From an uncultured Spirochaetota bacterium (GTDB lineage Bacteria; Spirochaetota; Spirochaetia; SZUA-6; Fen-1364), in NCBI GenBank assembly GCA_963734545.1, contig CAVTHO010000009.1, forward strand, positions 128,001 through 192,000: a DNA stretch of 64,000 nt, given 5' to 3'. Below, piece after piece: positions 27,587 through 33,255 of this stretch. Made by a program: the position numbers and the translations under genes. The stretch's first letter is position 1. Each line of letters begins with the position of its first letter. The notes beneath the pieces are model-generated. The model made no database searches and was not told where the DNA came from. It saw only the letters and a list, made by a program, of their open reading frames with translations.

Positions 27587-28216
27587 CTACAGCGAGCGGC
27601 AGAACCGGACCATCTCCCGAACCGCCTCGGCCATGTTCTGCGCGTACGTGCGGCCTGAGCTCTTGCGCGGCTTGAACGAGTGGTCCCCGTCTTCCAGATA
27701 TGCCACCCGAATCGCGGCAGACAGCGTGTAGCCGGCAATCTCCTCCCGGGTCCCGAGCGTATCCCGGGTGCCCTGAAGGATAAGCGTGGGGGTCTTGAGA
27801 TCCTTCAGGTGCGCCACTCGAAGACTGGCCGGTCTTCCCGCCGGATGAAACGGGTAGCCCAGGCAGACCAGACCTTTCACACCGAGCCCGTCCGCCACCA
27901 TGCTGGCAATCCGTCCACCCATCGACCTTCCGCCAATCACCAGCTCTGACGGCGAGCCGAGCTGATCCACGACGCCGGCCCAGCAATCCTGCAGCACCTT
28001 CGGCGCATCAGGGGCGGTTCTCCTGCCCGTCTTTCGAAACTCCTGCATGTAGGGGAACTCGAACCTGATCACTTGAATGGACTCACCGACCAGCGCGTGC
28101 GCCATTTCTTCCATGGGCGGAGAGTCCATGAGCGACCCGGCTCCGTGCGCAAGAACCACGCGCAGCCAGGGCTTCCCGGCTTCCGGGGTGTCGATCAGCA
28201 AAGGTACAGTACTCAC
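27587..28216 (-). CDS. Alpha/beta hydrolase (KANL3/Tex30-like)
   Basis: GTG start with GGAGG RBS; 'LAHGAG', 'GGRSMGGR', 'LGYPFHP', 'QGTRD', 'GDHS'. Confidence 0.88.
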   Translation of the reverse strand: MSTVPLLIDTPEAGKPWLRVVLAHGAGSLMDSPPMEEMAHALVGESIQVIRFEFPYMQEFRKTGRRTAPDAPKVLQDCWAGVVDQLGSPSELVIGGRSMGGRIASMVADGLGVKGLVCLGYPFHPAGRPASLRVAHLKDLKTPTLILQGTRDTLGTREEIAGYTLSAAIRVAYLEDGDHSFKPRKSSGRTYAQNMAEAVREMVRFCRSL

Positions 28217-28280
28217 GCAGCCTCCTCCGCGCCTATGGCCCCGGTGCCCGCAGTCACTTACATTGGACTGGGAAACAGGG

Positions 28281-30245
28281 ATGGCTATTGAAGAATATCG
28301 CCGCAAAAGAGACTTCAGCAAAACACCCGAACCCGAACCGGGAAAGCTGGACGTCGGGGGAAACAGGTTCGTCGTCCACCGGCACGAGGCGCGCAACCTC
28401 CACTATGATCTGCGGATCCAGGCGGGAGGGGTCCTGTCCTCCTGGGCCGTGCCGAAAGGATTCTCATACGATCCGGTGGACAAGAGGCTCGCGGTAAGGA
28501 CCGAGGATCATCCGCTCGAGTACACGAGCTTCGAGGGGGCCATTCCGCGCGGCCAGTACGGCGCCGGTACGATGCGCATCTGGGACGTCGGGGAATACGA
28601 GGTGCGGAAAGCCCCCGACATCCATAGAGCAATCGAGAAGGGAGAAATCAAGCTCGAGCTGCGGGGCCGGCGATTGCGCGGGGAATGGCACATGGTGCGC
28701 ACCAAGGGGGGCGAAGGCAGGGACTGGCTGCTTTTCAAGGCCCGGGATCGCTACGCCGGGTCCGGTAGCGACTTGTTCGGAGGCGCGGACATGAGCCGGG
28801 CAATCCAGAGACCGCCGCTCGGCAGGATTGCCCGAATGGAAGCCTCGCCCTGGCCGCTGCCCTTCGATGACCCGGACTGGCTTTTTGAACCGGCGCTGGC
28901 AGGGAAGCGCGTGCGCGCGTCGATCGACGGCCCTTCGGTCAGCATCCGGGCCGGGGCGGAAGACCTTGCCCCGGAGCTGCCGGCCGTTGTGGCGGATCTG
29001 GGGAAAATACGCGCGGAGACGCTGCTCTTCGATGGTGTTGTCGTCACGGGCGAATCAGCGCCTGTTCTGTACGTCTTTGACGTGCTCTACGCCGAAGAAT
29101 GGGACCTGAGGCAGCTCGCGCTCCGGGAGCGCAAGGCCGTCCTCCGTTCGCTCCTGCCGGACCTGAAATGCGTATTCCGGGTCGACCCGGTGGCCGAGCG
29201 CGGCTCGGCGCTCGCACAGGCAGCCGCCGAATCGGGGCTGTCGGCGATTCTGGCCAAGCGCGCGTCGAGCAGATATCAGGCAGGACTCTCGGAGGACTGG
29301 CGGCACATACCGGTTACCGCGGCAAAGACCCGGAACCAGGCCAGGAAGCCTCCCCGCCCGGCCGAGTTTGCAATAACGAATCCCCGCAAGGTGTACTGGC
29401 CCGAGCAGGGATACACGAAAGGGGACCTGCTGGCCTACTACGAGCTGACCGCGGGCTGGCTCCTCCCTTACCTCAAGGACCGCCCCCTGCACATGTACAG
29501 GTGGCCGGATGGAATACGGGGCAAGTCGTTCTATCAGAAGCAGCTCCCCGAGGGAATTCCCGACTGGATCGAGACGGTGGATGTCGCCAAGGCTGGCGAG
29601 GAGCCGACGCACTACATCGTCTGCAACGACCGAAGGACGCTGCTGACCCTCGTGAACCTCGGGACCATAGACATTCATCCCTGGCTTTCCCGCAGGGGCA
29701 GCCTCGATTCTCCGGACTGGGCGATCCTCGACCTGGACCCCAAGGAGGCTCCATTCTCGAATGTGATCAAGGTGGCGCGCGTCGTCGGCAAGCTCCTGCG
29801 GGGGCTCGGCCTCGAGGCCTACCTGAAGACTTCCGGCTCCACCGGGCTGCACGTCTGCATCCCGTTGAAGCCCGGCTACACCTACGAGCAGAGCCGCATG
29901 TTCTGCGAGGCCGTTGCGCGGCTCGTTGTGCGGGACCATGGTGACATCGCGACCGTGGAGCGCGTCATGAGCCGTCGCGGGGGCCGGGTCTACGTGGATT
30001 TCCTTCAGAACCGAAGGGAGCAGACGGTCGTCCCGCCGTACGTGGTGCGGCCGGTGGAAGCTGCGTCGGTCTCGATGCCGCTCGCCTGGGACGAGCTCGA
30101 AGGGGAGCTGCGCATCGAGGACTTCACGCTGGCCACGGCACCCGCGCGCATCGAGAAGACGGGAGACCTTTTTCGCACTGCCCTCGGCAAGGGGCAGGAT
30201 CTTGCGGGGGCCATCGAAGCCCTGGCGCGTTCCCTCGAGGCCTGA
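28281..30245 (+). CDS. ligD: LigD-type NHEJ protein: phosphoesterase + degenerate ligase domain + primase-polymerase
   Basis: PE: 'HRHEARNLHYDLRI', 'SWAVPKG', 'RTEDHPLEY'. Pol: 'YTKGDLLAYY', 'RWPDG', 'LDLDP', 'KTSGSTGLHV'. Middle domain has EPALAGKR in place of ExKxDGxR. Confidence 0.9.
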   Translation: MAIEEYRRKRDFSKTPEPEPGKLDVGGNRFVVHRHEARNLHYDLRIQAGGVLSSWAVPKGFSYDPVDKRLAVRTEDHPLEYTSFEGAIPRGQYGAGTMRIWDVGEYEVRKAPDIHRAIEKGEIKLELRGRRLRGEWHMVRTKGGEGRDWLLFKARDRYAGSGSDLFGGADMSRAIQRPPLGRIARMEASPWPLPFDDPDWLFEPALAGKRVRASIDGPSVSIRAGAEDLAPELPAVVADLGKIRAETLLFDGVVVTGESAPVLYVFDVLYAEEWDLRQLALRERKAVLRSLLPDLKCVFRVDPVAERGSALAQAAAESGLSAILAKRASSRYQAGLSEDWRHIPVTAAKTRNQARKPPRPAEFAITNPRKVYWPEQGYTKGDLLAYYELTAGWLLPYLKDRPLHMYRWPDGIRGKSFYQKQLPEGIPDWIETVDVAKAGEEPTHYIVCNDRRTLLTLVNLGTIDIHPWLSRRGSLDSPDWAILDLDPKEAPFSNVIKVARVVGKLLRGLGLEAYLKTSGSTGLHVCIPLKPGYTYEQSRMFCEAVARLVVRDHGDIATVERVMSRRGGRVYVDFLQNRREQTVVPPYVVRPVEAASVSMPLAWDELEGELRIEDFTLATAPARIEKTGDLFRTALGKGQDLAGAIEALARSLEA

Positions 30246-30262: not shown

Positions 30263-31474
30263 TCAGTCGTCCGGATCGTCCCTCCCCTTGTACCTGATCA
30301 GGGTGAGGTGCATCTCGCTAGGAAACGCTTTGAGGCATTCCGCTCGATGAGGGAGCGCCTTGTCGTGCTGACCCGTGCGGGAGAATATGATTGCGAGATT
30401 GCAGTGCGCATCCGGATAGCGGGGCTCGAGGGACAGCGCGGTCTGGTAGGCATGGATCCCCTCGTCATGCTTGCCAATTGCCACCAGGCAATTGCCCAGA
30501 TTGTTCCACGCCTCCGCGAAACCACGATCGGCATCGATAGCCTGCAGGTAACGCTCCGCCGCGTCCGCCTCGCGTCCCAGCTCGTAGAGAACATTTCCGA
30601 GGTTGAAGAGCGTTTCCGGATCTGGTTCCGCTTCGAGGGCCCGGCGGTACGCATCCGCTGCCCGCTGAAGATCGCCGCGCTCCTCGGCCTCCACCGCCTC
30701 GGAAAACCACCGGCTGTGGCTCTGGTCGCCTTCCGGGAAGATGGACACGCGGGGAGATGTCATCTCCCGCTCCGTGTCGAAATCCATGAGCCTCTGGCCG
30801 CTGGGCTCGGCCCAGCCTCCATCCAGCAGCCGGATGCGCAGCCCGCTGTCATACGCCTCGAGACGCCCGGCAATCTGTTCTCCATCCGGCACCCACTGGG
30901 CGATCTCGGAGAGGCTCTGGCGCAGCAGCGCGGTGGAGACTCCGGATGCCGTCAGCCGGCCGAGGTTGCGCGCAAGCAGGATGTCCTTGAACTCGAACCA
31001 GGCCAGCCGATTGGCCACGCGCGCGGGAGGGAGCAGCCCTCGGCGCATCCAGCTGCGGACCACGGAAAGGGGCTCGTCCACGATGCGGCCCACCTGGGCC
31101 GCGGTGTACATTCGGGAGATATCGCTCAATTCTCCTTCGGCGCCGATCAAGGCCAGGAACTCGGCCTCGTCCACCAGCCGTATGGGTGCCCCCTGTTTCT
31201 TCAGCTCGCGGAAGCGCAGCATGTTGCGCGCAATACCCCCGTCCGGCGTGAAGTGCCCCGTTGCCTGGCCCGCTATGAGAAGCTCCGTGGTGGTCCCTGG
31301 CTCGCGCACGGGGCGGCCGCCGGCCCGGGTGATCCGCTGGACCGCCTCTGCCCTGTCCATGGAGACCAGACGACCGGTGAGCGCCACTTCCCTGCCGGCG
31401 AGCGATTCCTGAGGCGGCACTTTTTCCCTGCGCGGTACCCCGCGCATTTCTTCTTCCGTCACGACGTCAGGCAT
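30263..31474 (-). CDS. BRCT + MerR-like HTH + TPR protein
   Basis: LigA-like BRCT 'LAGREVALTGRLVSMDRAEAVQRITRAGG..IRLVDEAEFLALI'; HTH 'YTAAQVGRIV..VVRSWMRRGLL'; TPRs 'LFNLGNVLYELG', 'AWNNLGNCL', 'AHCNLA'. Confidence 0.82.
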   Translation of the reverse strand: MPDVVTEEEMRGVPRREKVPPQESLAGREVALTGRLVSMDRAEAVQRITRAGGRPVREPGTTTELLIAGQATGHFTPDGGIARNMLRFRELKKQGAPIRLVDEAEFLALIGAEGELSDISRMYTAAQVGRIVDEPLSVVRSWMRRGLLPPARVANRLAWFEFKDILLARNLGRLTASGVSTALLRQSLSEIAQWVPDGEQIAGRLEAYDSGLRIRLLDGGWAEPSGQRLMDFDTEREMTSPRVSIFPEGDQSHSRWFSEAVEAEERGDLQRAADAYRRALEAEPDPETLFNLGNVLYELGREADAAERYLQAIDADRGFAEAWNNLGNCLVAIGKHDEGIHAYQTALSLEPRYPDAHCNLAIIFSRTGQHDKALPHRAECLKAFPSEMHLTLIRYKGRDDPDD

Positions 31475-32363
31475 CCAGAAGCCCCTCGAACACGGGTGCG
31501 CGAAGCAATCCCGCTGAGGTGAGCTCAGCGAAGCTTACCGCGCAGAACAGGCCCGGCTCAACCCACCTCGCGCGTTCAGGGCAGGACACGAGCGGCGTGT
31601 CTCTCGGCCGCTGTCTCAGGAGCGTGTTGATCCTTTCGCGGACCCCTTCGGTGAAGCCGCCCCCCACTCTCCCGACATAGCGAAGCGCACCTTCCTGCTC
31701 TCCGGGAAGGCCGTTGCTCGCCACGAGCAGGCTCTGGAAGTCATCGCCATCCTTCTCGATATATCCGATGATGGCAACGTGGACCTGGAGCCGCCGCTTG
31801 AACTTCACCCAGGCGCCGTTGCGCTTTCCCGCCGCGTATGTGCTGGAGAGGCGCTTTGCCACGACTCCTTCAAGGCCCTGCTCGCAGGCCATCCGGTACA
31901 GCATCTTTCCTTTGGCGCGGACCCCTTCTGAAAGAATCACGCCCGGACACGGGGAATCCTTCATGATCTCTTCGAGGACCCCGCGCCTTTCGGAGAACGG
32001 CGCGTCGAGCAGGGAGCGGGACGCGCTGTAGAGGACGTCAAACACGACAAAGCTGACCGGCCAGGCGCCGGCACCGTGTCTGCTTTGAAGGACGAGCTCG
32101 AAATCAGGCTTGCCGTCGCGAAGAACAACCAGCTCCCCGTCCAGGACGAGGCCGTCGGGGAGCGCGGCCAGGCCGGCAAGGGACGGGTAGCGCGCGGTGA
32201 TATCCACCCCGTTGCGGCTCACAAGGCGATGCGCGCCGCGCTCCACCAGGGCCTGCGTGCGGATGCCGTCCCACTTGAACTCGAAGAAATGGGCGTCCGA
32301 ATCGAATGGCTGGCCGAGGACGGCGAGCATGGGGGGCACGAACCGGGGAAGCGCCTTATCCAA
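31467..32363 (-). CDS. Stand-alone ATP-dependent DNA ligase (LigD-ligase/LigC-like)
   Basis: Probable TTG start overlapping the Ku stop; intact 'EFKWDGIR', 'LDGELV', 'FDVL', 'EGVVAK', 'WVKFK' and OB domain 'GRVGGGF..LRAPVF'. Confidence 0.88.
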   Translation of the reverse strand: MDKALPRFVPPMLAVLGQPFDSDAHFFEFKWDGIRTQALVERGAHRLVSRNGVDITARYPSLAGLAALPDGLVLDGELVVLRDGKPDFELVLQSRHGAGAWPVSFVVFDVLYSASRSLLDAPFSERRGVLEEIMKDSPCPGVILSEGVRAKGKMLYRMACEQGLEGVVAKRLSSTYAAGKRNGAWVKFKRRLQVHVAIIGYIEKDGDDFQSLLVASNGLPGEQEGALRYVGRVGGGFTEGVRERINTLLRQRPRDTPLVSCPERARWVEPGLFCAVSFAELTSAGLLRAPVFEGLLDA

Positions 32364-33255
32364 CCTTCTTCTTCTTGGTCGTTGCGGCTTTGGCCGGCTT
32401 GGCGCTGGGAGCCTGCTTGAGCCCCGCCTTTGCCGCCTGCTTGTCCTCCACCGTTGCCTGCGCGCCGCTGGCTGCCTGGGCCTCTGCCACGCTGCGCTTG
32501 AGGGCCTCCATGAGATTGATGATCTTCGGCTCCTCGGGGTCACGGATCTGGACGACTTCCTTCCCCTCGATCTTCATCTGGATCAGCTTTGTCAGCTTTT
32601 CCTTGTACACGTCGTGATACTTTGAAAAGTCGAAGCTCTTGATCATCGAGGCTTTGATGAGCGTGTCCGCCAGGGACATTTCCGCATCGGACACTTCCGT
32701 TTCAGTGATCTCGTCCTTGAACGCGGAGGCGGCCTTCACCTCGTCCTTCCGGTTCAGAACGGTCATGGCCAGCACCCCGTCTATCGGCCGCAGCATGACC
32801 ACCTGCTCTTTCTGGGAGATGACCACCTCGGCCATGGCGCACACCTGGTTCGCCAGCATGCCCTTCAGCAGAAGGTTGTACGGTTTCTGGCCCACGGGCC
32901 CGTCCGGCGTCAGGAAGTAGGTCCGGCCGCCCAGGTAGATCGTGCTGAGGTCCTCCGGCTTGATGAACCCGTCTATCCGGATGGACTTGTCGCTCTCGGT
33001 GCGCAGCTTGTCGATCTCATCCTCGTCGATGATGACATACTGCCCTTTCGAGTACTCGTAGCCCTTGACGATCTCCTCGCTGCTGACTTCACCAACCTCA
33101 GGGGCGAACTTCTTGTACTGGATCCGCGTGTGGGTTTTTGCGTGAAGCTGGTGGAGCGTGATGTCGCTCCCGGTCGACGTGGACGTATATGCCTTGACTG
33201 GCACTGAAACCAGGCTGAGCTTCAAGAACCCCTTCCAACTGGCATGGGCTGCCAT
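32356..33255 (-). CDS. ku: Ku DNA end-binding protein
   Basis: 'WKGFLKLSLVSVPVKAY', 'IVKGYEY', 'INLMEALKRS', basic Lys/Ala-rich tail. Confidence 0.95.
   Translation of the reverse strand: MAAHASWKGFLKLSLVSVPVKAYTSTSTGSDITLHQLHAKTHTRIQYKKFAPEVGEVSSEEIVKGYEYSKGQYVIIDEDEIDKLRTESDKSIRIDGFIKPEDLSTIYLGGRTYFLTPDGPVGQKPYNLLLKGMLANQVCAMAEVVISQKEQVVMLRPIDGVLAMTVLNRKDEVKAASAFKDEITETEVSDAEMSLADTLIKASMIKSFDFSKYHDVYKEKLTKLIQMKIEGKEVVQIRDPEEPKIINLMEALKRSVAEAQAASGAQATVEDKQAAKAGLKQAPSAKPAKAATTKKKKVG

Follow-up and report, generated by a model that had tools for sequence, protein, structure and literature searches.

Non-homologous end joining (NHEJ) has already been described in two arrangements: fused LigD proteins, in which a 3'-phosphoesterase (PE), a ligase (Lig) and a primase-polymerase (Pol) form one polypeptide, and split NHEJ. 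Work on Methanocella paludicola reportedly describes stand-alone archaeal Lig, Pol and PE. In the accessible part of bioRxiv 10.1101/869602, 'non-conventional NHEJ' denotes systems with the domains on separate proteins, and architectures are classed by the presence of LIG, POL and PE. Here we analysed a window of 64,000 nt (positions 128,001 to 192,000 of contig CAVTHO010000009.1, assembly GCA_963734545.1) from an uncultured Spirochaetota bacterium. The window encodes a protein of 654 amino acids (aa) with the domain order of LigD, in which the middle domain, a homologue of the ligase nucleotidyltransferase (NTase) domain termed psiNT below, lacks the catalytic residues. A complete LigD-type ligase and Ku are encoded next to it.

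We consider the locus to be, in all likelihood, a split NHEJ module, in which a PE-psiNT-Pol protein would work with a Ku-linked ligase acting in trans and psiNT would be kept for a non-catalytic role. Judging from the lost residues and from known ligase chemistry, we have very little doubt that psiNT is catalytically dead. The comparative evidence makes it highly probable that ligation is carried out by the product of the neighbouring gene.

Residues lost and kept in the 654-aa protein

The frame of the 654-aa protein is open already from 28077 (28077-30245, + strand); its start was placed at 28281 (MAIEEY) because homologues begin there (consensus of 51 homologues). The PE domain matched PF13298 (residues 33-140, E 3.2e-41) and TIGR02777 (200.5 bits, cut-off 144). 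Its alignment to the Pseudomonas aeruginosa PE structure 2LJ6 (E 4.6e-45) pairs H35, H41, D43, R45, H77 and Y81 with H42, H48, D50, R52, H84 and Y88, and includes the His-His-Asp manganese site and the Arg, His and Tyr of the active site. The Pol domain matched PF21686 (residues 379-631, E 2.9e-87) and TIGR02778 (248.7 bits, cut-off 214.7). It aligned to 2FAO at E 7.4e-35, and its D484, D486, S518, H524, D573 and R590 correspond to D137, D139, S172, H178, D227 and R244 of Mycobacterium tuberculosis (Mtb); the DxD motif, the Ser and His of motif II, the Asp of motif III and the Arg were all found, and the six residues are invariant in the family alignment (A1). The roles of these PE and Pol residues are as given in the accessible part of PMC8656161. 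The initial annotation had described both sets of motifs as intact, and the residue-by-residue comparison with solved structures bears this out.

The middle domain produced only a partial match to PF01068 (residues 258-340, covering positions 112-200 of the 204 in the profile; 23.2 bits, cut-off 26.2) and 60.4 bits on the LigD ligase model TIGR02779 (cut-off 227.75). It is nevertheless a clear homologue of LigD ligase domains. The profile of 67 family members aligned to the Mtb LigD ligase domain 1VS0 with an E-value of 3.4e-25, nearly without gaps over 179 positions, and the domain is 31% identical to the neighbouring stand-alone ligase (163 residues, E 1e-10). An AlphaFold2 (AF2) model built from the 67-sequence alignment had a mean predicted local distance difference test score (pLDDT) of 93.2 and a predicted template modelling score (pTM) of 0.85, and its top Foldseek match was 1vs0_B (E 4.7e-11). 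In VIA-align comparisons the model reached Z-scores of 21.3-22.4 to NTase domains of ATP-dependent ligases, with Z 22.0 and a root mean square deviation (rmsd) of 2.0 A over 167 aligned residues for Mtb LigD 6NHZ (chain residues 451-638). The OB domain, reported absent in the initial annotation, is indeed missing: PF04679 had no match in the 654-aa protein, and a linker of 20 residues stands where canonical LigDs have 138-175 extra residues.

For Mtb LigD, the accessible part of PMC8656161 names K481 as the nucleophilic lysine, which forms the AMP adduct; R501, E530, E613 and K635/K637 as metal or phosphate ligands; and E479, R486 and K618 as residues that hydrogen-bond the adenine base and the ribose. 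It also reports that nick sealing is abolished by E613A or K637A alone. In the 1VS0 alignment, the nucleophile column of the window protein holds A205 and the motif I Asp column holds A207, as expected from the E-P-A-L-A-G-K-R reading of the initial annotation, which proved an exact translation; E203, G208 and R210 of motif I are retained. The annotation's list of losses was accurate as far as it went but incomplete, as the window protein has also lost the Glu of motif III (DGV, with V253) and the counterpart of Mtb R501, an Arg replaced by G225. Motif IV (G-L-S-A-I-L-A-K-R) was rightly called degenerate in that its Glu and Gly are replaced (S321, A322), but its Lys, K326, is retained. Motif V reads W-R-H-I-P where WxKxK was to be expected, and both lysines are missing (H342, P344), again as annotated.

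The same losses run through the family. Below, lost positions are named by the canonical residue at window numbering (K205, for example, is the Lys column, occupied by A205 in the window protein). When 67 family middle domains were compared with 146 canonical NTase domains, seven positions conserved in at least 97% of the canonical domains were found to be lost in the family (K205, D207, R225, E253, E321, G322, and K342). The motif I Asp was present in four of 67 members and the motif I Lys in seven, all from one Acidobacteriota subgroup, with Lys and Asp never occurring together (0/67). The motif III Glu occurred in none, the motif IV Glu in three, the first motif V Lys in three, and the second in none. 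Nearly all losses concern positions that serve as nucleophile or bind phosphate or metal, and the equivalents of the adenine- and ribose-binding E479, R486 and K618 survive. We regard psiNT as dead because the lysine is what forms the AMP adduct and because a single change, E613A or K637A, is enough to abolish sealing by Mtb LigD.

An unconventional mode of ligation, with another lysine as the nucleophile or with the OB domain of the neighbouring ligase borrowed, is extremely improbable. K209 does lie four residues past the normal Lys position in the window protein, and seven of the 67 members have the motif I Lys. However, K209 is not conserved (K, R, T, S, A and others occur in the family), and the metal-ligand Glu and the phosphate-binding Lys and Arg, of which E613 or K637 alone is indispensable to sealing in Mtb, have been lost as well; in addition, a complete separate ligase is encoded in every assessed genome. 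In the seven Acidobacteriota loci concerned (L024-L028, L030 and L036), motif I reads E-M-K-F-x-G-x-R, and the motif I Asp, the Glu of motifs III and IV and both lysines of motif V are absent, as is the OB domain. The Ku-ligase pair lies more than 10 kb away in five of these seven genomes, the five that were checked.

We give practically no credence to the idea that an assembly error or a frameshift in one record simulates the loss of KxDG. The coding frame has no stop, as the initial annotation stated, and no forward frame of 28701-29400 contains a K.DG motif that a compensating pair of frameshifts could have displaced. Contigs from four public metagenome runs, which are 90-99% alike and represent related strains rather than raw reads of the same sample, showed substitutions only, with no insertion or deletion reported over 28600-29500. 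Moreover, the same pattern recurs in 72 independently assembled loci, and we rejected the artefact on these grounds.

Set against LigD, the 654-aa protein has the ligase NTase fold and the genomic association with Ku, and lacks the motif I KxDG, the motif III Glu, the motif IV Glu-Gly, the motif V KxK and the OB domain. Filing it as a DNA ligase would be a mistake, since it fails at the motif I Lys, at the other catalytic motifs and at the OB domain. Family members carry public names such as 'non-homologous end-joining DNA ligase' or 'bifunctional non-homologous end joining protein LigD'. Going by their sequences, they almost certainly cannot ligate, and the ligase part of these names is very likely wrong.

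Table 1. Features of the PE-psiNT-Pol locus (positions within the window)
Feature	Position	Strand	Evidence
PE / pseudo-NTase / Pol protein (P0001), 654 aa	28281..30245, stop codon included	+	ORF + family scans
PE domain, residues 1-165, active site intact	28281..28775	+	PF13298, TIGR02777, residue alignment
Pseudo-NTase domain (psiNT), residues ~186-345, without catalytic residues, without OB	28836..29315	+	profile, AF2, Foldseek, VIA-align
Motif I remnant E203-P-A-L-A-G-K-R210	28887..28910	+	translation + alignment
Poorly conserved linker, residues 346-365, at the place of the OB domain of canonical LigD	29316..29375	+	alignment, low pLDDT
AEP primase-polymerase (Pol) domain, residues 366-654, active site intact	29376..30242	+	PF21686, TIGR02778, residue alignment
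403-aa BRCT-like/MerR/TPR protein	30263..31474	-	Pfam + NCBIfam scans
Stand-alone LigD-type ATP-dependent DNA ligase, NTase + OB (P0002)	31467..32363	-	PF01068, PF04679, TIGR02779, 1VS0
Ku	32356..33255	-	PF02735 E 3e-44; TIGR02772 255 bits, cut-off 150

The separate ligase and the distribution of the family

Ku, the stand-alone ligase and the 403-aa protein are encoded in this order in a three-gene operon on the strand opposite to the PE-psiNT-Pol gene, so that Ku and the ligase are encoded apart from Pol and PE, as in split NHEJ. The likely start of the ligase is a TTG at 32363, which follows an AAGAAGG stretch and overlaps the end of Ku; an alternative is the ATG at 32330. The ligase matched PF01068 (E 4e-30), PF04679 (E 1.1e-15) and TIGR02779 (230 bits, cut-off 227.75), and aligned to 1VS0 over residues 70-355 (E 1.6e-33) with motifs I, III, IIIa, IV and V all kept, so the motifs and OB fold claimed for it in the initial annotation are present. 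Its closest relatives in the tree set read EKDG..R, DGE, EG..K and W.K.K. Only two places in the window's genome (10 contigs totalling 5.1 Mb, 89% complete) matched PF01068: the stand-alone ligase, with 107 bits, and the dead domain, with 25 bits, below the cut-off. The stand-alone ligase is the only intact ATP-dependent ligase found in this genome.

Searching with the middle domain as query retrieved 76 proteins. Sixty-three of them had an E-value of 1.8e-25 or lower; the complete ones are about 650-720 aa long, and PF04679 was detected in none of the 63. After a gap followed 13 canonical LigDs at E 3.4e-16 or weaker, 12 of which contain PF04679. None of 51 full-length members has Lys at the Lys position or Asp at the Asp position. 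A scan of one genome per species yielded 80 loci, with a further 203 candidate stretches outside this count. The degenerate architecture was found at 72 of the 80 loci, belonging to Spirochaetota (34), Planctomycetota (25), Acidobacteriota (8), Eiseniibacteriota (3) and unassigned genomes (2); the remaining eight are canonical (ELKYDGxR, DGE, EG..AKR, W.K.K/R). In the window's genus, the domain was present in 16 of 18 other genomes, the two without it being 84% and 91% complete, and a ligase-sized second match lay on the same contig in at least 11 of the 16. Other families of the same order had psiNT in three of 12 genomes.

A profile search of 1.84 billion representatives with the psiNT alignment (A2) did not separate the family cleanly, as canonical NTase domains scored 150-170 bits. 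The 150 best matches of that search comprised 113 canonical domains, 20 that lack Lys, Asp and the motif III Glu, 12 with other degeneration, one with Lys only, and four partial. Five proteins of the representative library (P0108, P0130, P0144, P0147, and P0089) have some catalytic positions replaced; on the tree they fall outside the family, in the midst of canonical ligases, and may represent independent decay or sequencing errors. In three relatives (G022, G034, and G044), the dead domain matched in two pieces within one open frame of 774-852 aa, which suggests an insertion in the middle of the domain.

We surveyed the flanks of the 72 family and eight canonical loci at a threshold of E 1e-15, with full flanks defined as 10 kb. 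Within the fetched flanks, a separate ligase was detected at 41 of the 72 family loci, Ku at 31, the BRCT-like/MerR/TPR gene at 39, and all three at 29. For the 45 loci with full flanks, the corresponding counts were 25, 19, 25, and 18. Canonical loci had Ku nearby in six of eight cases and a separate ligase in none. The 20 full-flank genomes without a nearby ligase all carry a stand-alone LigD-type ligase elsewhere, as established by whole-genome search. Fifteen of these distant ligases were detected with TIGR02779 (209-279 bits, full profile coverage, open frames of 299-381 aa) and five with PF01068; Ku adjoins four of the latter five and the BRCT-like gene two. A canonical fused LigD, sought as a full-length ligase match in a long, LigD-sized frame, was found in none of the 20 genomes. 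In total, a stand-alone LigD-type ligase was present in 61 of 61 assessed family genomes, for the most part next to Ku. Every catalytic position is kept in 34 of 37 trans ligases; the other three have Ile or Val in the motif III Glu column, possibly an alignment effect. The initial annotation, which inferred a ligase acting in trans, had suggested checking whether close homologues share the substitutions and co-occur with a stand-alone ligase; the loci and the genomes show both.

A quick IQ-TREE phylogeny of 118 NTase domains (171 columns, unrooted, catalytic columns left in) placed 36 dead domains and two degenerate library proteins on one side of a branch with a Shimodaira-Hasegawa-like approximate likelihood ratio test (SH-aLRT) support of 99; the retained catalytic columns could add a little to this grouping. 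The 37 trans ligases were on one side of a branch with a support of 97, and the backbone between the two groups was not resolved. Constraining psiNT and the trans ligases to one group gave a tree that scored 10.3 log-likelihood units above the free quick search and was not rejected by the approximately unbiased test (p-AU 0.655). The term 'sub-functionalised' used in the initial annotation implies a duplication, and an origin of both groups from a single duplication is allowed by the tree but not demonstrated by it.

The third gene of the operon overlaps the ligase stop by 8 nt. Its 403-aa product has a MerR-type helix-turn-helix and TPR repeats; the BRCT-like N-terminus is weak (Pfam BRCT E 0.025, below cut-off), and its NCBIfam matches are to the BRCT-bearing ends of PolIII epsilon and LigA. 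A MerR+TPR form also adjoins three of the eight canonical LigD loci. We found no account of this gene in full-text literature searches, and consider it a candidate new accessory factor of bacterial NHEJ. More tentatively, the locus might represent a distinct four-component NHEJ made up of Ku, the ligase, the BRCT-like/MerR/TPR protein and PE-psiNT-Pol. As part of this same tentative proposal, psiNT would keep an adenosine cradle (E203, R210, F266, and K326) with no phosphoryl-transfer chemistry and act as a binding module that times the hand-off to the ligase, and its ligand would be a nucleotide, an adenylylated 5' end or the tail of a partner.

An alpha/beta hydrolase gene (PF20408, E 6.3e-73) is located at 27587-28396 on the - strand, divergent from the PE-psiNT-Pol gene. 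Among fetched loci, only the closer ones (L003-L023 and L065, all from Spirochaetota) have it alongside the family.

Retention and possible role of psiNT

In the split module that we favour, Ku would bind the DNA ends, the PE domain would heal or trim 3' ends, and Pol would fill or extend them. The psiNT domain is predicted to keep the NTase fold and to be unable to form the lysyl-AMP intermediate, and the stand-alone ligase, presumably co-transcribed with Ku on the opposite strand, would seal the nick in trans. By contacting DNA, Ku or the neighbouring domains, psiNT may position PE and Pol at Ku-bound ends, and such a scaffold or docking role is the most likely one. A precedent comes from the accessible part of PMC13717202 (2026), according to which the Mtb ligase domain contacts the Ku C-terminus, the Mtb LigD residues D522, K579 and L580 have an effect on polymerase rate and on the binding of Ku and DNA but none on intrinsic ligation, and ligase-domain mutations weaken DNA binding about threefold. 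By analogy, the retention of psiNT would be explained if a non-catalytic role of this kind predated the catalytic loss.

Conservation of the domain is considerable. Across 67 sequences, which are 30-83% identical to the window's domain, ten columns are invariant (E203, G208, R210, D251, D267, R284, L288, K326, Y332, and W340) and 16 more are nearly so; 96% retain the motif IIIa Phe (F266). At six positions (D197, R244, A248, Y264, V301, and L311), conservation is specific to psiNT and absent from canonical domains. The invariance of adenosine-contact residues suggests docking or nucleotide binding. It is conceivable, though rather doubtful, that psiNT is a non-catalytic nucleotide-binding module for ATP, ADP, AMP, NAD or a 5'-adenylylated DNA end that gates the hand-off to the separate ligase, an arrangement that is compatible with ligation in trans and differs only in the job of the dead domain. 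E203, R210 and K326, whose Mtb equivalents contact adenine and ribose, are present in all 67 psiNT domains, as are D251 and D267, and the losses are nearly confined to the phosphate, metal and nucleophile positions. However, the same residues may persist merely to hold the fold, and R225 and E253, also ribose contacts in Mtb, have been lost. The surviving adenine- and ribose-contact residues would fit a structural core and an adenosine-binding pocket alike.

Selection was assessed with Nei-Gojobori estimates for 15 pairs, of which seven were informative (synonymous divergence, dS, of 0.42-0.89: window/L004, window/L003, L003/L004, L033/L034, L027/L028, L027/L030, and L068/L071). In these seven, the ratio of nonsynonymous to synonymous divergence (dN/dS) was 0.11-0.17 for psiNT, 0.02-0.06 for PE and 0.02-0.09 for Pol. 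The domain is under purifying selection, weaker than that on PE and Pol. It has the traits of a pseudoenzyme domain: the parent fold is retained, the catalytic residues are lost and selection is purifying.

Several observations weigh against the favoured reading of a split module with a retained psiNT. In 20 of the 45 full-flank loci the 10-kb flanks contain no ligase, the ligase count does not extend to 11 family loci on short contigs, and the Acidobacteriota subgroup keeps its motif I Lys. The full-length AF2 model (A1; pTM 0.50, mean pLDDT 76.2, with linkers 160-165 and 348-361 below 50) gives psiNT no fixed packing against PE or Pol. Mapped by hand from the 1VS0 alignment, D522, R567, K579 and L580, which contact Ku in Mtb, fall on A245, W274, A286 and V287 of the window protein, positions whose identity is not conserved. 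The dN/dS of psiNT exceeds that of Pol in 14 of 15 pairs and reaches 0.60-0.99 in three very close pairs, which have few substitutions (dS 0.02-0.07). Finally, about 18 residues between motifs III and IIIa are missing at 29020-29060 in the window subclade (the window, L003, L004 and three close proteins), where the consensus of the rest of the family is ALDxxGxPSExALxxELxxGG; this could be ongoing erosion. In a separate prediction, run without controls, the complex of psiNT with the C-terminal region of Ku (residues 190-299, A3) scored 0.00 against a mark of 0.32, a result that argues neither way on binding.

The weaker constraint, the close pairs with high dN/dS and the deletion could also be read as signs that psiNT is a functionless, decaying remnant, a spacer between PE and Pol pending its deletion. 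We find this very unlikely, as the domain has been retained in four phyla with its invariant and nearly invariant columns and six specific positions, its fold is confidently predicted, and dN/dS is low where dS is informative. Furthermore, no direct PE-Pol fusion without the middle domain was found among the 120 closest PE relatives. Of these, 116 are 633-721 aa long and the four shorter ones (367-527 aa) are truncated forms; PF04679 was found in none of the 120.

Comparison with known end-joining systems

Full-text literature searches, from whose coverage most subscription journals fall outside, returned no description of a LigD with a degenerate ligase domain, and neither does the accessible part of PMC8656161 contain one; the word 'inactive' occurs 0 times in bioRxiv 10.1101/869602. 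Fused and split NHEJ were known before, and a dead NTase domain inside a PE-Pol protein with a dedicated ligase is what we did not find described. Surveys of NHEJ that score the presence of LIG, POL and PE would misclassify the genomes of this family. The family amounts to a natural separation-of-function experiment on the non-sealing roles of the LigD ligase domain: a domain stripped of catalysis has long been retained across four phyla, which makes a non-catalytic role directly testable. From the viewpoint of evolution, it indicates that a fused multi-enzyme can cede one activity to a separate gene while keeping the domain.

An analogy, with no homology implied, is offered by the noncanonical prokaryotic PolX proteins without polymerase activity that are described in the accessible part of PMC9226535. 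There, too, a repair enzyme family keeps an ancestral catalytic domain minus its original activity, whereas the fold, the pathway and the lost activity are unrelated.

The best sequence and fold match of psiNT is the Mtb LigD ligase domain (1VS0, 6NHZ). The two have the E479, R486, K618 and motif IIIa Phe-Asp positions in common, whereas the equivalents of K481, D483, R501, E530, E613, G614, K635 and K637 are replaced in psiNT and the residues beyond about Mtb 640, which form the OB domain, are absent. With the P. aeruginosa-type LigD, the window protein shares the order of PE, ligase-derived domain and Pol, the link to Ku, and a PE domain that aligns with 2LJ6 at all six active-site residues. 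It differs in its middle domain, from which the nucleophilic Lys, the ligands of metal and phosphate, and the OB domain are missing. Canonical LigDs are about 800-930 aa long, as opposed to about 650-720 aa in the family, and in every assessed genome the family is paired with a separate ligase gene. In common with split NHEJ, the ligase polypeptide is separate from end processing, Ku is adjacent, and the stand-alone ligase is of the LigD type (TIGR02779); in contrast to it, PE and Pol stay fused here, and a dead but conserved copy of the ligase NTase domain links them.

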